The notes below the pieces were generated by a model. It was given only the letters and a program-made list of their open reading frames with translations, ran no database searches and had not been told where the DNA came from. The position numbers were made by a program, and so were the translations under genes. This document shows, in pieces, positions 6,620 through 14,976 of a stretch of DNA of 61,458 nt. Position 1 is the stretch's first letter; each line of letters begins with the position of its first letter. The DNA lies in contig CANQNJ010000004.1 of assembly GCA_947625185.1 (NCBI GenBank), forward strand, positions 1 to 61,458, given 5' to 3'. Source of the stretch: an uncultured Clostridia bacterium (GTDB taxonomy: Bacteria > Bacillota > Clostridia > Christensenellales > CAG-314).

Positions 6620-6648
6620 TTGTCAAACGGCAATATTTGTAGTATAAT
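6620..6648 (+). promoter_or_regulatory. sigma-A promoter of cyclophilin gene
   Basis: TTGTCA-17-TATAAT. Confidence 0.65.
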
Positions 6649-6838
6649 TATCATTGATTTTCAATTGCGGACGAGTCGGCGCGCGGTATATCCGGCTGTA
6701 TGCGTGTGCAATGTTTTTTATGGCTGCTTGTCGAGATGTCCGTCGGGCAAGGGCATTGCGCATATGTCCCGTTTCAACGATTATTATGTCCCGCGCGCGT
6801 CAGGTTTGGCGTACGTTCGGACGAAAGGAGCAATATAT

Positions 6839-7366
6839 ATGTCAACTATCAATCCTACTGCGGTCATTACTATGCAAAACGGCAAACGTATCACGTTGGA
6901 GCTGTATCCCGACGCGGCGCCCAATACCGTCAATAACTTTATCGCCCTTGCCAACGGCGGATTTTACGACGGGCTTATATTTCATCGCGTCATACGCGAC
7001 TTTATGATCCAGGGCGGCTGTCCGCAGGGTACGGGCACGGGCGGTCCGGGGTATTGCATTGTCGGCGAATTTTCTCAGAACGGGTACGACGGCAATTATC
7101 TCAGACACGAGCGCGGCGTTATCAGTATGGCGCGCGCAATGGACCCCGACAGCGCGGGCAGTCAGTTCTTTATTATGCACCGAGATGCTCCGCACCTTGA
7201 CGGCGCTTACGCCGCATTCGGCAGAGTTACCGACGGTATGGACGTGGTGGACGAGATCGCCGACGAGTACACCGATTATCGCGACCGTCCCTATTCCGAG
7301 CAGAAGATGGCGTCCGTTCGCGTCGATACTCACGGAGTCGCCTATCCCGCCCCCGAGAAGCGCTGA
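6839..7366 (+). CDS. ppiB: Cyclophilin-type peptidyl-prolyl cis-trans isomerase
   Basis: FHRVIRDFMIQGG, ISMARA, SAGSQFFI, HLDGAYAAFG; AAGGAG RBS. Confidence 0.92.
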   Translation: MSTINPTAVITMQNGKRITLELYPDAAPNTVNNFIALANGGFYDGLIFHRVIRDFMIQGGCPQGTGTGGPGYCIVGEFSQNGYDGNYLRHERGVISMARAMDPDSAGSQFFIMHRDAPHLDGAYAAFGRVTDGMDVVDEIADEYTDYRDRPYSEQKMASVRVDTHGVAYPAPEKR

Positions 7367-7486
7367 CCTTTGTCTTGCGCTCGCGCCGATATCCCGCTTT
7401 GCGCGACAGCCTTTGCACTTTGCAATGCGCCCAAGCCTGCCCTTTTTCGGACGGGCTTTTTTGTGACCATTTCGCCTGCTTAAATA

Positions 7487-7515
7487 TTGCAATAATATTT
7501 TTCTTGTGTTATACT
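7487..7515 (+). promoter_or_regulatory. sigma-A promoter of R-M island
   Basis: TTGCAA-17-TATACT with extended TG. Confidence 0.65.
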
Positions 7516-7551
7516 GTATTTGTAGAAGTTTATGATAAACGGAAATTCTTA

Positions 7552-8880
7552 ATGAACAAAGCAGATATCAAAGAAAATTACATAATCAAGATCGACCGCG
7601 AATTGTTATCCGTATTACTCAAAGATCGCAGTTCCGGCAAAAATATCATTTGGGCTACGGATGACTATGCCCGCAGGGGCGAGATGTACCTTGCAAATGA
7701 GCAAATTACCGTTAGATCCGTCAGCGGGCATAACGGCAACGTTATCAAACCTCGTATAGAGAAGTCTAAAAAGGAACAAGCATTTCGCATAAAAAACAAA
7801 GCCGAAGTTTTCACCCCGTCTTGGATATGCAACAAGCAAAATAACCTTGTGGATAACGCTTGGTTTGGGCGCGAAGGCGTTTTCAATACGGAAACAGACC
7901 AAACGTGGATTGCCACAACGGAAAAAATACCTTTTCCTGCTGCCGACGGCAAAACGTGGAAGGATTATGTCCGCGCAACTCGTCTGGAAATCACTTGCGG
8001 CGAAGCGCCCTATCTGGTCAGCCGTTACGATACGGTTACGGGCGAAAGCATAGATATCCCCTCCCGAATCGGACTGTTGGACAGAAAATTGCGCGTCGTT
8101 TGTGAAAATGTCGACAATGAGCAAGAATGGGTGGAGTGGGCGATTGCCGCTGTTCAAAGCGTTTACGGCTTTGATTGGCAGGGCGACAACGTTTTACTTG
8201 CGCGAGAAAACCTGCTGTTCACCTTTGCGGATTATTATTCTTACCAATTCGGGACCTGCCCTACAAATGAGAATTTGTTAAAAGTCGCGGATATTTTATC
8301 CTGGAATATCTGGCAGATGGACGGGCTGAAATTTGTAATTCCCAACAGCTGCAAGCCGACGCCGAGATTGCAAATGTCGATTTTCGACGACGAAGAACAG
8401 CAAGAAGAATGCGAAGGGTGCAAAACAGGAAACAATTCCAAGCATACAGGCACTTATTCAATAATAAAAGATTGGCAAACAAACAAAGCGATAAAGTTCT
8501 ACAATTTGCTCGGAGAAAAAAAGATGAAATTTGATTTTATAATAGGAAATCCGCCTTATAATACGGAAAGTGAAGGTGCAAAAATAGCCGACGATTCAAT
8601 TTACCACTATTTTATCGATATGGCATACAAGCTTTCAGATCGAGTGGCATTGATTACGCCCTCAAAATTTCTGTTTAACAATGGAAATACACCCACGGCG
8701 TGGAATAGAAAAATGCTTGAAGATGAGCATTTCAAAGTATTACTTTATGAACCAAACGCACAGAAAATTTTCCCCAATGTAACGTTTAGGGGGGGGTTGC
8801 CATTCACTACAGAGATAAAAATAAATATTTTGGCGCCATTCATCAATTTACTGAATTTAATGAACTCAATTCTATATTAA
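7552..8880 (+). CDS. N6-adenine DNA methyltransferase (Eco57I-like), 5' part, frameshifted at G8 tract
   Basis: EVFTP (motif X), LEITCGEAPYL (motif I-like), FDFIIGNPPY (motif IV); reading frame continues in -1 frame after 8796. Confidence 0.85.
   Translation: MNKADIKENYIIKIDRELLSVLLKDRSSGKNIIWATDDYARRGEMYLANEQITVRSVSGHNGNVIKPRIEKSKKEQAFRIKNKAEVFTPSWICNKQNNLVDNAWFGREGVFNTETDQTWIATTEKIPFPAADGKTWKDYVRATRLEITCGEAPYLVSRYDTVTGESIDIPSRIGLLDRKLRVVCENVDNEQEWVEWAIAAVQSVYGFDWQGDNVLLARENLLFTFADYYSYQFGTCPTNENLLKVADILSWNIWQMDGLKFVIPNSCKPTPRLQMSIFDDEEQQEECEGCKTGNNSKHTGTYSIIKDWQTNKAIKFYNLLGEKKMKFDFIIGNPPYNTESEGAKIADDSIYHYFIDMAYKLSDRVALITPSKFLFNNGNTPTAWNRKMLEDEHFKVLLYEPNAQKIFPNVTFRGGLPFTTEIKINILAPFINLLNLMNSILY
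8789..8796 (+). repeat. Poly-G (G8) tract at the MTase frameshift
   Basis: TTTA-GGGGGGGG-TTGCC; one extra G gives FRGGVAIHYRD... continuous into the 8922 ORF. Confidence 0.8.
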
Positions 8881-8921
8881 AAAAAGTTTTAGCTCTAAAA
8901 GAGCCATCTTTAACTACTATA

Positions 8922-9542
8922 ATGTACAATCAAAACAAATTCGTTTTGGATACATTATATTTAGATTATCCCGAATTAAAAACTGTAATCAGCAGCGACG
9001 GCAAAGAAAAAAGATTAACGAGCGGGTGTTTGAAATACAGTTGTTTCCATACAGATAAAATTGATAAAGACGATATTGAAATTTTAGGTGTAATCAATAA
9101 TAAGCGGACGAGATTGTTTGTTGGACGAAAGTATATTGAAATGCTGCATCCAAATCTTGAAAAATATAAGGTTATAGTGCCCGCGAATAATGGGTCTGGT
9201 GCCTTGGGAGAGGTATTATCTACGCCATTGATTGGCTCGCCATTGATTGGCTTTACACAAACGTTCATAAGCATTGGCGCATTTGACAATAGAGCAGAAT
9301 GCGAATGTGCATTCAAATATGTAAAATCAAAATTTTGCAGAGCAATGTTGGGTGTTCTTAAAATAACACAAAACGGCAAGAGAGAAATGTGGAAGTACGT
9401 TCCTATGCAAGATTTCACGTCAAATTCCGACATTGATTGGTCACAATCGGTGGCGGAAATTGACGTTCAATTATACAAGAAGTACGGGTTGGACGACAAG
9501 GAGATTTCCTTTATTGAATCTCACGTAAAGGAGATGAATTGA
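8922..9542 (+). CDS. Methyltransferase 3' part (target-recognition region) in shifted frame
   Basis: Frame is open from 8796; ends VPMQDFT..DIDWS..IDVQLYKKYGL..EISFIE, typical of Eco57I-type MTase C-termini. Confidence 0.75.
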   Translation: MYNQNKFVLDTLYLDYPELKTVISSDGKEKRLTSGCLKYSCFHTDKIDKDDIEILGVINNKRTRLFVGRKYIEMLHPNLEKYKVIVPANNGSGALGEVLSTPLIGSPLIGFTQTFISIGAFDNRAECECAFKYVKSKFCRAMLGVLKITQNGKREMWKYVPMQDFTSNSDIDWSQSVAEIDVQLYKKYGLDDKEISFIESHVKEMN

Positions 9543-9543
9543 C

Positions 9544-12500
9544 ATGAGCAAAATAAATGTTAAAACATCGGTTGCCGTAACGCCAATGATTTATGCCTAC
9601 ACAACACCGGGCATTGTTTATCACGAGGGTTGGACTAAAATAGGATATACGGAACGAGACGTAGATATCCGTATCAGGGAACAAACACAAACGGCAAATA
9701 TCGTTGCAAAAAAGGAATGGCAGGATATTGCCATCTTTTCTGATGGAAAAACACGTTTCACGGACAAAGAGTTCCATGCGTATCTTTCCAAAAACGATGT
9801 GGAGCGCAAAGAACCGCAACCGGACGGCGAAGGCTGTCCCGAATGGTTTAAGATAAGCGGCGACGATTCCTATGTTCTTTTCAGTAAGTTCCGTAGAAAT
9901 ATGGGTGTATTGCAAACACTTGGTGTTGTGCCGTATGTTTTGCGTGCAGAACAAAATGTGGCTGTCAATGCTACTTACGACTATTTTTCCGCAAATACGG
10001 ATGCCGAATTTTTGTGGAATGCAAAACCGCGTTTCGGCAAGACGCTTGCCGCATACGATTTATGCAAAAAATTGAATGCAAAAAAGGTGTTGATTGTAAC
10101 CAATCGTCCTACTATTGCCAACTCTTGGTATGAAGATTACGTAAAGTTTTTGGGGACTGAATCTGGATATTACTTTGTAAGCAACGTAGATGGTCTCAAA
10201 GGTCAAAAGTATGTTTTGTCGCGTGAACAATACACGCAATCCTATCTCAAAACAGCTAATCACAAAGGTTGTATTGAATTTGTTTCACTGCAAGATTTGA
10301 AGGGATCAATCTACTTTGGCGGTGAATACGACAAATTGGAAGAAGTCGCAAAGCTCGTTTGGGACGTACTTATTGTTGATGAGGCTCACGAAGGCGTTGA
10401 TACATACAAAACCGATGTTGCGTTCGACCATATTCAAAGAAAGTACACGCTTCACCTTTCAGGCACACCGTTCAAGGCATTTGCAAACAACAAATTTCCC
10501 GAAAAGGCAATTTTCAATTGGACGTATGCGGATGAGCAAGAAGCAAAAAGACGTTGGAACACCTCTTCGGAAGTGGAAAATCCCTATGCTAATTTGCCAC
10601 AGCTAAATTTGTTTACCTACAAAATGTCCGACATTGTAAGAGATAAGATTGAACAGGGCGCGGACTTTGATGATGATGGTGAAAGAGAAGCCTTTTGTTG
10701 GGATTTGAATGAATTTTTCAAAACCAATGCCGGCGGTAAGTTTATTCATGACCAAGCTGTTGACAAGTTTTTGGATGCGTTGACTACGCAGGAAAAATTT
10801 CCGTTTTCCACAGAAGAACTATGCAATGAGTTGAAGCATACGCTGTGGCTGTTGAAATATGTTAGCAGTGCAAAGGCTCTCGCAAAGAAATTAAGCGACC
10901 ACCCTAAATTCCAAGGTTACAAAATCGTTTTGGCGGCAGGCGATGGAAAGCTGGACGACGAAGGTACAAGTGTAGATGAAAGAACGGTGGAAAGAAACAT
11001 CAAGAATTCATATGACAAAGTAAAGGACGCCATCAAAACCAATGACAAAACCATAACGCTCTCTGTCGGTCAGTTGACTACGGGCATTACAATTCCGGAG
11101 TGGACGGGCGTGTTGATGCTCTCGAATATGAAAAGCCCTGCTCTTTACGTTCAAGCGTCGTTCCGCGCACAAAATCCGTGCTTATTTAATATAGGTGGGG
11201 TGCCACATCGCAAGAAAAATTGTTACGTTTTCGACTTCGATCCGGCAAGAACGTTGAAGATTGTAGAACAATTTGCCAACGATTTGCACCCCGATACCGT
11301 CAATGGTATGGGCGATACAGATTTGCGCAAACAGCACGTCAGAGAGTTGCTGAATTACTTCCCCGTATATGGTGAAGATGACGCAGGCGAAATGATTGCT
11401 CTGGATGCTGAAAAAGTGTTGTCAATTCCGCGCGCAATACACGCAAAGGAAGTTGTACGTTGTGGCTTTATGAGCAATTTCTTGTTCCAAAATATCGGCA
11501 GTATATTCAATGCGCCACAAGCCGTAATTGATATAATTCAAAAAATGCAACCTGCCGAAGAACCCGTCGGAGTAAATCAATCGACCAAGGGCGAATTGAA
11601 TGTTGACGGAAATGGCGAAGTGGCAATTCCGGAAGAAAAGATTATTGGTACGGCAACCGAAATCTTTGGTGATAAGCTGTATGGTGACATTCAAGAAGAA
11701 TTGATCGAAACGGTTACGGAAATTCAACAGCAACAGACAAGATCATCTAAAAAGGATGAGAAACTTGAACAGTTGCTGAACGTATTCCACACCAATGTTA
11801 CGAACAAATTGGTAGAAACAGCAAAAACACAGTACGGCGAAGATATGTCGAAATCTACCCAACAAGCACTTGTGCGTAAAATCAACACTACGGCAGATAG
11901 TACAGTTCGTAAGCATTACGGCGATTATAAAATACAAGACAACAGATTAGAAGCCGAGCGCGCAAAACAAATTGATCAAGCAATTGCGTCCGGTAGAATG
12001 TCGGAAATCAATGCTATTCAACATGCATTTGATGAACAAAAAAAAGTTATTGAAAAGACGTTTATTGAAGGCATACAGGCGGAAGTCCAGACTGTTGTTG
12101 AAGAAGCAGGAAATACTATCGTTGAAACAGTAGAGAAAAGCAAACAAGAAAAGAAGAGAGACGAGCTTATGGATAACGTGAGAGACCATTTACGTGGTTT
12201 TTCACGAACAATTCCATCGTTTATTATGGCGTATGGTACTGAAACTACTTCGCTTGAAAACTTCGACACGATAATTCCCGATGAAGTGTTCAAAGAAGTT
12301 ACAAGTATTTCGTCGGATGAGTTCAGAAGGCTACGTGATGGCTTTGAATATACGGACGAAAATGGTATATTGAAAAGATACAATGGATTCTTTGATCCAA
12401 TCGTATTCAACGACTCTATCAAGGAATTTTTACGGTTGAAACGTAAACTTGCCAACTACTTTGCGGATGATCAGACGGAAGATATATTCGACTATATCCC

Positions 12501-12906
12501 GCCGCAAAAAACCAATCAGATATTTACTCCGAAGAAAATAGTCAAGCAAATGGTTGATAATCTTGAAGTTGAGAACCCTGGCTGTTTTGATAACCCCGAT
12601 TTTACTTTTGCTGACCTATATATGAAGTCGGGATTGTATATCACGGAGATTGTCAAGAGGCTTTTCAGAAGTGCAAGGATGAAGTCACTGTTCTCCGATG
12701 AAACCGCAAGAATCAATCATATTTTTGAGAGGCAAGTCTACGGCTTTGCTCCGACGGAGATTATATATAGAATTGCGCTTGCGTTTATTTTGGGATTCAG
12801 TGATGAAATCAAGATCGAACACCATCATTTGATGTTGCTTGATACATTGCCATATGCACAGGAAGGGACGCTCTCTGCAAAGCTCGATGAATTATTCGAA
12901 AAATGA
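9544..12906 (+). CDS. Restriction endonuclease-helicase: GIY-YIG/T5orf172-like nuclease + SF2 (ResIII-like) helicase + C-terminal half-MTase domain
   Basis: PMIYAY..KIGYT..R..EWF; NAKPRFGKT, DEAH, LSGTP, QASFRAQ; C-terminal QIFTPK..FADLYMKSGL. Confidence 0.85.
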   Translation: MSKINVKTSVAVTPMIYAYTTPGIVYHEGWTKIGYTERDVDIRIREQTQTANIVAKKEWQDIAIFSDGKTRFTDKEFHAYLSKNDVERKEPQPDGEGCPEWFKISGDDSYVLFSKFRRNMGVLQTLGVVPYVLRAEQNVAVNATYDYFSANTDAEFLWNAKPRFGKTLAAYDLCKKLNAKKVLIVTNRPTIANSWYEDYVKFLGTESGYYFVSNVDGLKGQKYVLSREQYTQSYLKTANHKGCIEFVSLQDLKGSIYFGGEYDKLEEVAKLVWDVLIVDEAHEGVDTYKTDVAFDHIQRKYTLHLSGTPFKAFANNKFPEKAIFNWTYADEQEAKRRWNTSSEVENPYANLPQLNLFTYKMSDIVRDKIEQGADFDDDGEREAFCWDLNEFFKTNAGGKFIHDQAVDKFLDALTTQEKFPFSTEELCNELKHTLWLLKYVSSAKALAKKLSDHPKFQGYKIVLAAGDGKLDDEGTSVDERTVERNIKNSYDKVKDAIKTNDKTITLSVGQLTTGITIPEWTGVLMLSNMKSPALYVQASFRAQNPCLFNIGGVPHRKKNCYVFDFDPARTLKIVEQFANDLHPDTVNGMGDTDLRKQHVRELLNYFPVYGEDDAGEMIALDAEKVLSIPRAIHAKEVVRCGFMSNFLFQNIGSIFNAPQAVIDIIQKMQPAEEPVGVNQSTKGELNVDGNGEVAIPEEKIIGTATEIFGDKLYGDIQEELIETVTEIQQQQTRSSKKDEKLEQLLNVFHTNVTNKLVETAKTQYGEDMSKSTQQALVRKINTTADSTVRKHYGDYKIQDNRLEAERAKQIDQAIASGRMSEINAIQHAFDEQKKVIEKTFIEGIQAEVQTVVEEAGNTIVETVEKSKQEKKRDELMDNVRDHLRGFSRTIPSFIMAYGTETTSLENFDTIIPDEVFKEVTSISSDEFRRLRDGFEYTDENGILKRYNGFFDPIVFNDSIKEFLRLKRKLANYFADDQTEDIFDYIPPQKTNQIFTPKKIVKQMVDNLEVENPGCFDNPDFTFADLYMKSGLYITEIVKRLFRSARMKSLFSDETARINHIFERQVYGFAPTEIIYRIALAFILGFSDEIKIEHHHLMLLDTLPYAQEGTLSAKLDELFEK

Positions 12907-13033
12907 AATGTGTTTATATCGTAACAAAACAATTTATTCACAATATGGCGCACTCGTCGACTAAATAAATTTCATCGAGTTGAAGCCTATAAGTAAAGAA
13001 ATAATATTCAATATTCTAAAATTAAAATCAACG

Positions 13034-13066
13034 AAGCTGTGAGCAGAAGCTTGCGGCTTTTTATTT
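13034..13066 (+). terminator. Terminator after R-M island
   Basis: AAGCTGTGAGC-agaa-GCTTGCGGCTT followed by T-run. Confidence 0.55.
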
Positions 13067-13329: not shown

Positions 13330-14976
13330 ATGTTCAAAGTAATCATTGACGGCAAAACTACGGAACTCAACGAAAAAACGCCCATCAGAGACATTCTGCC
13401 CGATCCCGCCAAGCAATTTATGGCGGCAAAGGTCAACAACCGCCTGCGCGAGCTTACTTACGAGCTCAGTTTCGACAGCGAAGTGGTGCCGCTTGATCTC
13501 ACCACATCGGACGGCGTCAAGGTGTACGAGACGTCCTTCCGCTATTTGCTTGCGATGGCGTTTCACAACCTGTACCCCACCTATCAGATGAAGATAAGCT
13601 ATGCGATATCCCGTTCGCTGCTTGTAACTATGGTGGAGCCGAAAATGACAATGGATCGCCATATGATAGCTGCGGTGGAGGCGGAGCTTGATCGACTTGT
13701 CGCGCTGGATCTGCCCTTTGAGCGTACCGTGATGAGCAAGGAGGACGCCTACGATTACTTTGTCGCGCAGAAGCAGCAAGACAAGGCGGACGCGTTGCAA
13801 TACCGTCCGGAAAAGACCTGTCATTTTTATCGTTGCGGCGATTATCTCAATTATATGTACGGGTATATGGTGCCCTCCACGGGCTATCTCGGCAAATACA
13901 AGCTGTTCGGTTACGACGGTCATATGATAGCGCAATACCCCCGCTATGAGGCGGGCGGCGTTATCCCGGAGTTCAAGGACGAACCCACTTTCAGCAAGGT
14001 GCTTAAACGCGCGCACAAGTGGGCGACTATCTGCAACGCGGATATCATCTCCAAGATGAACGACCACGTCAACGAATCCACCTATGTGGACTTTATCAAT
14101 ATGAACGAGACCTTGCACAACGATATGCTGCACGACTTGGGAGATCGCATAGCCGAGGATATCGAGAATATCCGTCTGATATGTATTGCGGGACCGAGCA
14201 GCAGCGGCAAGACCACTTTCAGCAACCGTCTGCGTATCGAATTGATGTCGCGCGGCATAACGCCGCTGCGTATTTCGTTGGATATGTACTACAAGGACCG
14301 CGATCAAATTCCTCTGGACGAATTCGGCGAAAAGGACTTTGAGCATATCAACGCGTTGGACGTGGAGCTGTTCAATCAAAATATGCTTGCGCTCATCAAC
14401 GGTGAGGAGGCGGAATTGCCCAATTACCAATTCGAGCGCGGGCGTGCGGAAAAGGGCATAATAACAAAGATCGGTCCCGATACGCCCATCATCATCGAGG
14501 GCATACACGCGCTCAACGATCAATTGAGTTACCTTATCCCCAAGCATCAGAAGTTTAAGATATACATCGCGCCGCAATTTCAGATCAATATCGACTATCA
14601 CAACCCCATCAGTTACACGGATATACGCCTGCTCAGACGTATCGTGCGCGACAAAAAATATCGCGGAGCCAGCGCAGAGCGTACGTTGGATATGTGGCCC
14701 TCGGTGCGCCGCGGCGAATTTAAGTGGATATATCCCTATCAGGAAGGGTGCAATTATGTGTACAACAGCGCCCTCACCTACGAGTTGTGCGTGTTGAAGA
14801 AATATGCGCTGCCCGCATTGCAGGAAGTCAAGTCGGACAGCCCGCACTATATCACCGCCAACAGACTTATCAAGTTCCTCAAATACTTCAAGGAAATGGA
14901 CGACAAGTGGGTGCCCTGCAACTCGCTGCTACGCGAGTTCATCGGCGGATCGTGTTTCGCCGAAGTGGACGAGTAG
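13330..14976 (+). CDS. Nucleoside (uridine) kinase with N-terminal ThrRS-like domains
   Basis: IAGPSSSGKTTF P-loop, IIEGIHALN, RLLRRIVRD; TGS-like N-terminus. Confidence 0.85.
   Translation: MFKVIIDGKTTELNEKTPIRDILPDPAKQFMAAKVNNRLRELTYELSFDSEVVPLDLTTSDGVKVYETSFRYLLAMAFHNLYPTYQMKISYAISRSLLVTMVEPKMTMDRHMIAAVEAELDRLVALDLPFERTVMSKEDAYDYFVAQKQQDKADALQYRPEKTCHFYRCGDYLNYMYGYMVPSTGYLGKYKLFGYDGHMIAQYPRYEAGGVIPEFKDEPTFSKVLKRAHKWATICNADIISKMNDHVNESTYVDFINMNETLHNDMLHDLGDRIAEDIENIRLICIAGPSSSGKTTFSNRLRIELMSRGITPLRISLDMYYKDRDQIPLDEFGEKDFEHINALDVELFNQNMLALINGEEAELPNYQFERGRAEKGIITKIGPDTPIIIEGIHALNDQLSYLIPKHQKFKIYIAPQFQINIDYHNPISYTDIRLLRRIVRDKKYRGASAERTLDMWPSVRRGEFKWIYPYQEGCNYVYNSALTYELCVLKKYALPALQEVKSDSPHYITANRLIKFLKYFKEMDDKWVPCNSLLREFIGGSCFAEVDE

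Follow-up and report, generated by a model that had tools for sequence, protein, structure and literature searches.

A DrdVI-type split methylase operon with redistributed domains, in which one NPPY-TRD module may serve both modification and restriction

Contig CANQNJ010000004.1 of an uncultured Clostridia bacterium (Christensenellales; CAG-314; assembly GCA_947625185.1) carries an operon of two genes that resembles a restriction-modification (R-M) system. The stretch analysed, here called the window, comprises 61,458 nucleotides (nt), and the coordinates of the features discussed are collected in Table 1. Gene 1 encodes a half of a DNA methyltransferase that binds S-adenosylmethionine (SAM), named N1, followed by a module C that consists of the NPPY catalytic half and the target recognition domain (TRD). 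Gene 2, or R, encodes a nuclease and a motor and ends in a further domain, N2. An original prediction made from the letters alone had proposed that C is translated from an internal start and shared in trans by a protective methylase and by the nuclease-motor. This proposal has gained comparative and modelling support, which falls short of proof.

Table 1. Features of the operon and its edges (positions within the window; aa, amino acids; SD, Shine-Dalgarno sequence; SF2, superfamily 2; AF2, AlphaFold2)
Feature	Position	Strand	Remarks
Promoter-like site	7487..7515	+	TTGCAA, 17 nt spacer, TATACT, with TG before the -10; upstream of gene 1; pattern match
Gene 1	7552..9542	+	N1 then C; start ATG 7552; stop codon 9540-9542
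N1, M1-type SAM-binding half of gamma-class N6-adenine methyltransferase	7552..8520	+	First 323 codons of gene 1
Putative internal start	8512..8526	+	SD GGAG 8512-8515, 8-nt spacer, in-frame ATG 8524-8526 opening MKFDFIIGNPPY
C module, first part: motif IV GNPPY and following catalytic half	8524..8796	+	Gene 1 frame; Pfam Eco57I, PADLOC
G8 homopolymer breaking the C-module frame	8789..8796	+	G9 would be in frame
C module, second part: rest of catalytic half and TRD	8799..9542	+	Frame that G9 would join
Perfect 15-nt tandem repeat, 2.0 copies	9223..9252	+	Encodes PLIGS-PLIG inside the TRD
Gene 2 (R), 1120 aa	9544..12906	+	Nuclease, motor, linker and N2
T5orf172/MUG113 (GIY-YIG superfamily) nuclease	9589..9873	+	Residues 16-110; Pfam E 1.7e-5 and 8e-6, both above cut-off
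SF2 ResIII motor	9937..10473 plus later motifs	+	Residues 132-310; Pfam E 3e-14
N2, second, divergent SAM-half	12151..12903	+	C-terminal 251 residues of gene 2; alignment, AF2 model, BLASTP
Terminator-like hairpin, then T run	13033..13060	+	3' of gene 2; pattern match

N1 displays motifs X (EVFTP, residues 85-89), I (LEITCGEAPYL, residues 145-155), II (VYGFDWQ) and III (WQMDGL). The first two of these, together with the internal GGAG 8 nt before the in-frame ATG, lie where the original prediction had placed them. The PADLOC models used are built from REBASE, and they cut gene 1 cleanly in two. PDLC03390 ('MTase_II', 327 positions) is matched by residues 5-322 over model positions 6-325 (E 7e-130), and PDLC03375 ('MTase_II', 348 positions) places its positions 6-110 on the first part of C and 206-348 on the second. 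A further model, PDLC03626 ('REase_MTase_IIG', 1359 positions), matches the gene 2 motor, the NPPY part of gene 1 and then the TRD piece (positions 1215-1359). Pfam Eco57I covers gene 1 residues 203-407, crossing the boundary between N1 and C. A scan of NCBIfam gave nothing useful for either gene, and a C-module profile had no match among Protein Data Bank (PDB) sequences.

The copy of C in the window is out of frame at the G tract. The upstream frame of gene 1 stops at 8880 and the TRD carries on in the other frame, leaving gene 1 as assembled with a product of 442 aa and the ATG at 8524 with one of 118 aa. A ninth G would join the parts as ...NVTFRGG followed by VAIHYRDK... and extend the latter product to 339 aa. 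Because G8 is out of frame, the system is OFF in this assembly: neither a full-length methylase nor the 339-aa subunit can be made, and the two products that the original prediction had ascribed to gene 1, a subunit of ~339 aa and a full-length protective methyltransferase, do not exist in this copy as it stands. In 17 of 17 homologous loci compared, the reading frame continues unbroken through the corresponding K/R-G-G-V/I, whose Gly codons are mixed and form no homopolymer, and the NPPY and TRD parts share one frame. An open reading frame (ORF) of 206 aa with its own ATG (8922-9542) lies within the frameshifted TRD frame.

Gene 2 had been read as a GIY-YIG-like nuclease followed by an SF2 helicase, and its Pfam matches agree, as do the helicase motifs I, II, III and VI (GKT at 165, DEAH at 279, SGT at 306 and QASFRAQN at 537). 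Between residues 640 and 870, E, Q and K abound while P and G are scarce, and the folded last 251 residues begin with a helical part ahead of the strands; the long helical linker once claimed is supported to this extent. No Mrr-type family was reported for gene 2 in the Pfam, NCBIfam or PADLOC scans, and phmmer against all PDB chains returned no match at E <= 0.01.

N2 carries a motif X (QIFTPK, near residue 992), variants of motif I (FADLYMKSGLY, near residue 1021) and motif II (VYGFAPTE), and a motif III (LLDTL). An [NDS]PP[YFWH] motif is absent from the whole gene 2 protein, as is a TRD, which bears out the earlier description of a second motif X/I half lacking both. The AF2 model of N2 has a predicted local distance difference test (pLDDT) value of 85.7 and consists of the helical part followed by three strands alternating with helices. 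Its best Foldseek rows are all N6-adenine methyltransferases (CamA, StySJI M, LlaBIII, LlaGI, BsaXI, DrdV and PglX). Comparative and modelling evidence supports the view that the C-terminus of gene 2 corresponds to the N-terminal portion (motifs X, I, II and III) of an Eco57I-type methyltransferase domain, a portion that needs an NPPY-TRD partner.

Relatives of N2 can have this partner in the same chain. A profile of the last 251 residues matched 1139 representative proteins at E <= 0.001; among the best 150 representatives, 41 have an NPPY-type motif after N2, and 24 of those are chains of 1290-1534 aa. Pfam Eco57I was found in 12 of the 13 such chains scanned, together with ResIII and often T5orf172, and in every case with a known N2 range the Eco57I match begins within N2 and extends into NPPY. 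In the single-chain relative P0301 (N2 850-1082, Eco57I 1026-1167), the end of N2, ...KLKQIFGTEN, runs directly into MKFDVVVGNPPY.

By sequence comparison, the nearest known family is the DrdVI/MaeIV split methylase/RM group of REBASE, which has been little studied. DrdVI (Deinococcus wulumuqiensis 479, plasmid pDrdVI) and MaeIV are classed as Type IIG 'split methylase/RM' systems composed of M1, M2 and a GIY-YIG translocase-restriction endonuclease (REase), with the recognition sites GCAGCC and GCACY, respectively, and N6-methyladenine (m6A) as the modification (PMC6430315, PMC4996451, PMC10113651). The available portions of these three papers offer the phrase 'so called split methylase/RM' and the sites, and no mechanism for M1 and M2. 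In BLASTP comparisons, R of DrdVI (an 851-aa translocase-REase) aligns with gene 2 at 30% identity over residues 14-757 (E 3e-82). M2 residues 201-535 align with C (E 2e-34, with the intact C of locus L005 as the query) and M2 residues 7-119 with the window's N2 (E 1e-9), and M1 aligns with N1 over motifs X, I, II and III (E 1e-6). The window therefore has a homologous GIY-YIG/SF2 translocase-REase, an M1-type N-terminal half without NPPY, and the two M2-type parts in different genes, with C frameshifted. Both systems thus combine an M1-type half-methylase, an Eco57I-type catalytic/TRD part and a GIY-YIG-superfamily nuclease joined to an SF2 motor.

The arrangement of these parts differs between the two systems. 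DrdVI has the order M1 (212 aa), M2 (equivalent to N2::C, 539 aa) and R (851 aa), whereas the order in the window is N1::C and then R-N2. Relative to DrdVI, M2 is divided by a cut between motifs III and IV: the N-terminal third of M2 sits at the end of R, and the catalytic/TRD part is joined to N1. The M1-type half is also longer (323 aa) and fused to C instead of free, and the window copy alone of the two has a frame-breaking G tract.

Relatives of gene 2 of about 1116-1125 aa at >=70% identity number in the thousands. Through gene 2, 25 genome loci were collected: 19 have enough upstream DNA, one (L002) has the last 47 codons of gene 1 and five have fewer than 180 upstream bases. N1 and the NPPY sequence lie directly upstream of the gene 2 relative in 19/19 of the loci with enough upstream DNA, and N1::C followed by R is the layout of the window and of 18 of the 19. 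Other layouts redistribute the same modules. N1, C and R are separate genes in an Anaerococcus locus (L021), where a TAA stands between SD and ATG, and on Treponema pTS1, where N1 runs across the record origin. Lactiplantibacillus plantarum has the order N1, R, C. In Pediococcus pRS5 and on Enterococcus, Loigolactobacillus, Paenisporosarcina, Lactococcus and Staphylococcus equorum plasmids, a small half-methylase gene lies just upstream of a single R-N2::C chain, and M1, N2::C and R follow one another in Deinococcus wulumuqiensis pDrdVI and on a Rhizobium plasmid. Each layout examined has two SAM-binding halves and one C, and an M1-type gene accompanies every one of them, the single-chain R-N2::C included. 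In the source genome itself (1.73 Mb, 95.9% complete) a single C module is present and no second one was found.

Fusion and separation of N1 and C can also be followed in gene 1. Its best 120 homologous proteins comprise 71 N1::C fusions (647-684 aa), 43 stand-alone N1 proteins (322-334 aa), which end exactly at the N1/C junction, and six shortened forms (439-538 aa), among which the window's own product is counted.

In the Anaerococcus locus (L021:3973-6139) a tandem arrangement runs from a free C gene through a 34-codon piece of the 5' end of gene 2 to another C gene and then a full-length gene 2. The duplication may be real or an assembly artefact. Alternative specificities were considered for the two C modules and rejected, the copies being 94% identical and hence a plain duplication. 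For DrdVI-type systems, matches occur in 92 plasmid records and, among 401 genomes sampled from the phylum, in about 7. Plasmid-borne R-N2::C single chains with a small half-methylase are frequent in lactic acid bacteria and enterococci, and 38-39 of about 91 matching records are from Enterococcus. Annotation pipelines give the half-methylase genes differing labels, such as 'hypothetical protein', 'restriction endonuclease', 'methylase' or 'N-6 DNA methylase'.

The junction of N1 and C has the appearance of a translation start. In the window, the energy of the duplex between SD and anti-SD is -6.6 kcal/mol before the ATG at 8524 and -3.5 kcal/mol before the ATG of gene 1 at 7552. The weaker SD of gene 1 itself, which the original prediction had pointed out, is peculiar to this copy and no general trait, as the values for the gene 1 start in homologues range from -3.7 to -11.8. 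An SD and an ATG are present at 20 of 20 N1-C junctions (the window and the 19 loci), the ATG at most three codons from KFD and the SD-like purine run 6-10 nt upstream, and they stay while the junction residues vary (LGEKK, SGGNK, KGDKK, KRGKK, ERGVN, TRGNHS and others). The mean anti-SD energy at the junctions is -8.86, against -1.63 (standard deviation 2.27) at 396 in-frame ATGs elsewhere in these genes (Mann-Whitney p 4e-14, a pooled statistic that overstates independence, as the loci are related to each other), and equals the -8.8 of the true start of gene 2 in most close relatives. Ranked against this background, 18 junctions fall in the strongest 0.8%, the window at 2.3% and L009 at 5.6%. 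A survey of homologues for a conserved internal SD or for stand-alone NPPY genes, which had been proposed with the original prediction, thus returned both, the free C genes being those of the Anaerococcus locus, pTS1 and L. plantarum.

The start-like signal extends to proteins in which C follows N2. All 11 N2::C fusions for which DNA was at hand have a start-type codon at the junction (7 ATG, 3 TTG, 1 GTG), with SD energies of -5.5 to -7.8, and M2.DrdVI carries an SD and an ATG before M(Q/K)FD..GNPPY (ggagagaacATG). Among the 41 N2::C representatives the junction residue is M in 25, V in seven, L in six and another (I, F or H) in three, and these three have M or V one residue earlier. When the seven codons before the junction were shuffled synonymously, 24 of 24 real junctions were stronger than the mean of their own shuffles (-8.33 versus -5.48). 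Free translation of C from the SD at 8512 and the ATG at 8524 would account for this conservation.

An alternative is that no free C is made. Gene 1 would then yield the full-length methylase only, R would borrow C from the same polypeptide (with N2 displacing N1 by domain swapping, or with R docking at another place on the protein), and the SD and ATG would be a functionless scar of fusion. Fused and split states of N1 changed at least five times in a FastTree phylogeny of the 120 N1 sequences, with at least three changes forced by well-supported branches. The window's N1 falls in a supported, mostly split set of 43 split and five fused rows, and the SD and ATG of this copy may have been inherited recently from a split ancestor. 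The junction amino acids (G, D, E, K, R) alone already yield purine-rich, SD-like sequence, as the synonymous mean of -5.48 against the background of -1.63 attests. The per-locus shuffle p values are modest (median 0.125; 7/24 at or below 0.1), and only the direction of the effect was used. Met is also kept in many single-chain N2::C proteins. A scar of this kind, however, would not readily account for an SD and start codon at every N1-C junction in spite of varying neighbour residues, for ATG, GTG or TTG in all 11 N2::C fusions even where the residue is V or L, for the uniform excess over synonymous shuffles, or for an internal SD as strong as the true start of gene 2. The absence of free C is accordingly considered unlikely.

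Whether N2 and C could form one domain was addressed by complex prediction, with both modules taken from locus L005 and each given as an alignment; the C of this locus is 71-72% identical to the window's C pieces. The predicted N2+C complex scored 0.85 and the best of three controls 0.00. In the calibration of the method, the mark for this score was reached by 116 of 157 solved complexes and by 2 of 215 mismatched pairs; these figures apply only approximately here, since alignments made for this analysis served as input. Contacts agree by 94% or more between the three runs, and the partner pLDDT is at least 87. The face of C that N2 uses in the model comprises C residues 1-14, 26-44 and 73-98. 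The tightest predicted contacts join N2 residues 151-157, the motif I strand (TF.DLYM), to C residues 3-7 (FDFVI, just before GNPPY). This would pair strand beta1 with beta4, the central strand pairing of the class I methyltransferase sheet. Modelling of the C-terminus of gene 2 with the product starting at 8524 had been suggested in the original prediction, and the predicted complex of the L005 modules establishes a likeness of the joined pieces to a whole methyltransferase, not their binding.

A second alternative dispenses with complementation altogether. Gene 1 would be a self-sufficient, Mod-like methylase and R a Res-like subunit whose pseudo-methylase end does no more than tether it to DNA or to the methylase, in the manner of Type III systems. 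This would suit the lack of a canonical motif I G-x-G and motif II acid in N2, the weak Foldseek likeness of N2 to methyltransferases (E 0.016 or worse) and the undetectable profile similarity of N1 and N2. It sits poorly with the single-chain relatives, in which N2 continues directly as MKFD..GNPPY and both are covered by a single Pfam Eco57I match, and with the match of N2 to the N-terminus of M2.DrdVI, a complete methylase chain. The predicted complex also sets the motif I strand of N2 against the C strand before NPPY, and the three controls all scored 0.00. Moreover, in the layouts with M1 beside R-N2::C, or with M1, N2::C and R, the half without C is M1, not N2. Mere anchoring by N2 is therefore given little credence.

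The two SAM-halves are unlike each other. In the small M1-type proteins the motifs are canonical (FLEPAxGxGxFLV and YG(I/V)E), and N1 stays close to them with E..CGEAPYL and YGFD, its motif I near-canonical and its motif II acid kept. Throughout its family, N2 has D..x-K-(S/T)-G-(L/V)-(Y/F) and YG(L/F)AP or Y.(C/I)A, so that lysine stands where G-x-G has its first glycine, and there is no motif II acid. M2.DrdVI shows motifs of the N2 type as well (FLDPCTKSGVF and VFGIGITQ). The positions of motifs I and II contact SAM in class I methyltransferases. Lacking both the G-x-G and the motif II acid, N2 with C is therefore probably a reader and not an efficient methylase. Judged by these motifs, N2+C would probably serve mainly as the DNA-reading module of the nuclease-motor and N1 or M1 with C as the working methylase. 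A poor methylase in N2+C would also explain the presence of an M1-type gene in every layout.

N1 and N2 were also considered as detectably paralogous halves, an idea that was dropped when hhalign and BLASTP aligned only the FTP motif. The two are linked only through M1 and M2 of DrdVI and through weak tblastn matches of an Enterococcus half-methylase to both (E 1e-5 and 3e-4).

No G or C run in the 61-kb window other than the G tract reaches a length of seven, and the tract consists of Gly/Arg codons. Logan contigs from four rabbit-gut runs (four samples from two studies, of which X1 is maybe the window's own source) were aligned to gene 1. The tract has eight G in the window, X1 and X7 and ten, through insertion of GG, in X3 and X6, and the flanks within the C module are otherwise unchanged between samples except for a copy of the 15-nt repeat. 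The tract is thus length-polymorphic in nature, which fits a contingency locus: a homopolymer in the reading frame of C differs in length between populations and sets the frame. Of the phase switch suggested by the original prediction, the varying tract length stands, and an ON allele beside the OFF alleles was not seen, the lengths being 8 and 10 only. Contigs drop minority variants, so a minority in the ON state would not show in these samples.

Decay offers a third explanation. The locus would be a remnant, and the frameshift an inactivating mutation or an assembly error instead of a switch. An in-frame tract is absent from the window and from the contigs of three further samples, all of which have G8 or G10, and six of the 120 gene 1 homologues are shortened. 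A relative in an Acutalibacteraceae metagenome-assembled genome (L016) has frame changes in the C module (about 4150) and in the gene 2 relative (about 7076-7127), and this copy appears broken twice. Decay would not, however, be expected to alter the tract length between samples while leaving the C-module flanks unchanged apart from the repeat copy. Nor would it place the break in the only such run of the window, at a site where 17 relatives have mixed Gly/Arg codons, or keep both downstream frames open and gene 2 intact. Decay is improbable as the explanation of the locus, and decay of this one copy would be compatible with a shared C module in the family.

Two further differences were seen in the same contigs. 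An A>G polymorphism at 8516 accounts for all depth in the X3 and X7 contigs and for part of it in X1 and X6; it changes cggagaaaaaaagATG to cggaggaaaaaagATG (E to G) and lengthens the SD match two bases after GGAG. The repeat in the TRD has a third copy in the X7 contig, and three copies are present at the protein level in P0301 (PLIGEPLIGEPLIG). An in-frame change of copy number in a TRD resembles the spacer-length repeats of some Type I HsdS genes.

The explanation favoured here, with moderate confidence and on the strength of comparison and modelling, is that the locus is a DrdVI-type split methylase/RM operon with redistributed domains, in which C is shared by the protective methylase and the nuclease-motor. 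C would be translated alone from its own SD and ATG, besides being made as N1::C. Free C would dock onto N2 by beta1-beta4 strand pairing and give the nuclease-motor its only DNA-recognition module, so that an ISP-like restriction enzyme is assembled in trans. N1::C, or N1 with C, would be the protective m6A methylase, and N2 with C a reader rather than an efficient methylase. Methylation and restriction would then both depend on one C module. Since the tract sits in the module needed by both activities, its slippage should silence restriction and methylation together, and such a switch should therefore be safe for the cell. Joint silencing is consistent with a dependence of R on C, and not proof of it.

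Several points weigh against this explanation, in addition to those raised above for the junctions. From comparison and modelling we infer internal initiation, N2-C binding and the division of labour alike. The high score of the complex may reflect the memory of the model for single-chain methyltransferases, a caution that the prediction tool itself gives for halves of a split gene. Foldseek gave no row for N2 at E <= 0.001, the best being 0.016. The hhalign comparison of N1 and N2 profiles aligned the FTP motif only, with a probability of 2.8%, and BLASTP found nothing significant beyond it. No in-frame G9 allele occurs among the four sampled contig sets (G8, G10, G10 and G8). The available portions of the DrdVI and MaeIV papers do not state whether M2.DrdVI alone is inactive.

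A wider and more tentative proposal, which we hold to be possible though rather doubtful, concerns the family as a whole. C would be a freely exchangeable subunit for which the canonical M1 or N1, acting as methylase, and the divergent N2, a methylation-poor reader that licenses cutting, compete. The conserved internal start would set the supply of free C and with it the balance between modification and restriction, and the G tract would toggle both in the present locus. Natural protein-fragment complementation would in this case act as the control logic of an R-M system.

Other known systems resemble the operon in part. The original prediction had assigned it to a split form of Type ISP enzymes, which now serve as an analogue only. 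The available portions of the papers on LlaGI and LlaBIII describe the same order of functions, namely nuclease, SF2 motor, linker, gamma-class methyltransferase and TRD (PMC3553950, PMC3874165), and this layout recurs in the single-chain R-N2::C relatives of gene 2 (1290-1534 aa). The window likewise has an SF2 helicase-like ATPase (ResIII, motifs I, II, III and VI) between nuclease and methyltransferase parts. In contrast, the Type ISP nuclease is of the Mrr family (PD-QxK) and that of the window is T5orf172/GIY-YIG; Type ISP enzymes are single polypeptides, whereas the window has two genes, and the window's family always has an extra M1-type half-methylase gene. No sequence or fold homology to the solved LlaGI and LlaBIII chains was found, and the two appear only among weak Foldseek rows for N2 (4xqk, E 0.044; 5ffj, E 0.06), both short of the threshold. 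The 2012 Type ISP paper, in its available portion, goes no further than noting that there are related RM enzymes that have helicases and GIY-YIG nucleases.

Type III systems share with the window a motor that matches Pfam ResIII. Where their mod gene is phase-variable, the restriction subunit depends on the target-recognition subunit, and a repeat tract can switch both off without killing the cell. For the window, we infer the parallel dependence of R on C. The methyltransferase here differs from that of Type III in being gamma-class (motif X-I..IV, then TRD) and split within its catalytic domain, with a nuclease that is N-terminal and of the GIY-YIG superfamily. DnmA-YeeB-YeeC of Bacillus subtilis also combines an MmeI/Eco57I-like m6A methylase, an SF2 helicase and T5orf172 in one operon. 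It is set apart by its description, in the available portion of which the methylase is complete in one chain, helicase and T5orf172 are separate proteins and no half-methylase genes are described (PMC9973331). MANTIS/Gao_RL was considered and rejected as a different, BREX-related system, going by the available portion of its description (bioRxiv 10.64898/2026.09.23.753747). In the literature outside REBASE and subscription journals, no paper was found that describes the shared NPPY-TRD module, the internal start, the rearranged layout or the divergent N2 motifs.

Systems of the DrdVI type are not uncommon, but annotation treats their genes one by one, with labels such as 'hypothetical', 'restriction endonuclease', 'N-6 DNA methylase' or 'DEAD/DEAH helicase'. 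One NPPY-TRD module serving two alternative SAM-halves would, if true, answer what the M1 subunit is for. Modification and restriction would share one specificity and could phase-switch without the risk of self-restriction. The family would offer a natural model of split-enzyme complementation, and a single module of ~340 aa would be a handle for re-targeting both activities. It would also mean that functional internal starts of fused defence genes escape gene callers.

The operon forms a 5.4-kb island of low G+C (7500-13000) between a peptidyl-prolyl isomerase-like ORF (6620-7366) and an ORF at 13330-14976; its G+C content is 0.33-0.46 and that of the flanks 0.47-0.58. No integrase or repeat boundary was noticed beside it (7428-7465, 7500-13000), and no dedicated search for insertion ends was made. 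Promoter-like sites are no more numerous in the region than in shuffles, and the one upstream of gene 1 is a pattern match only.

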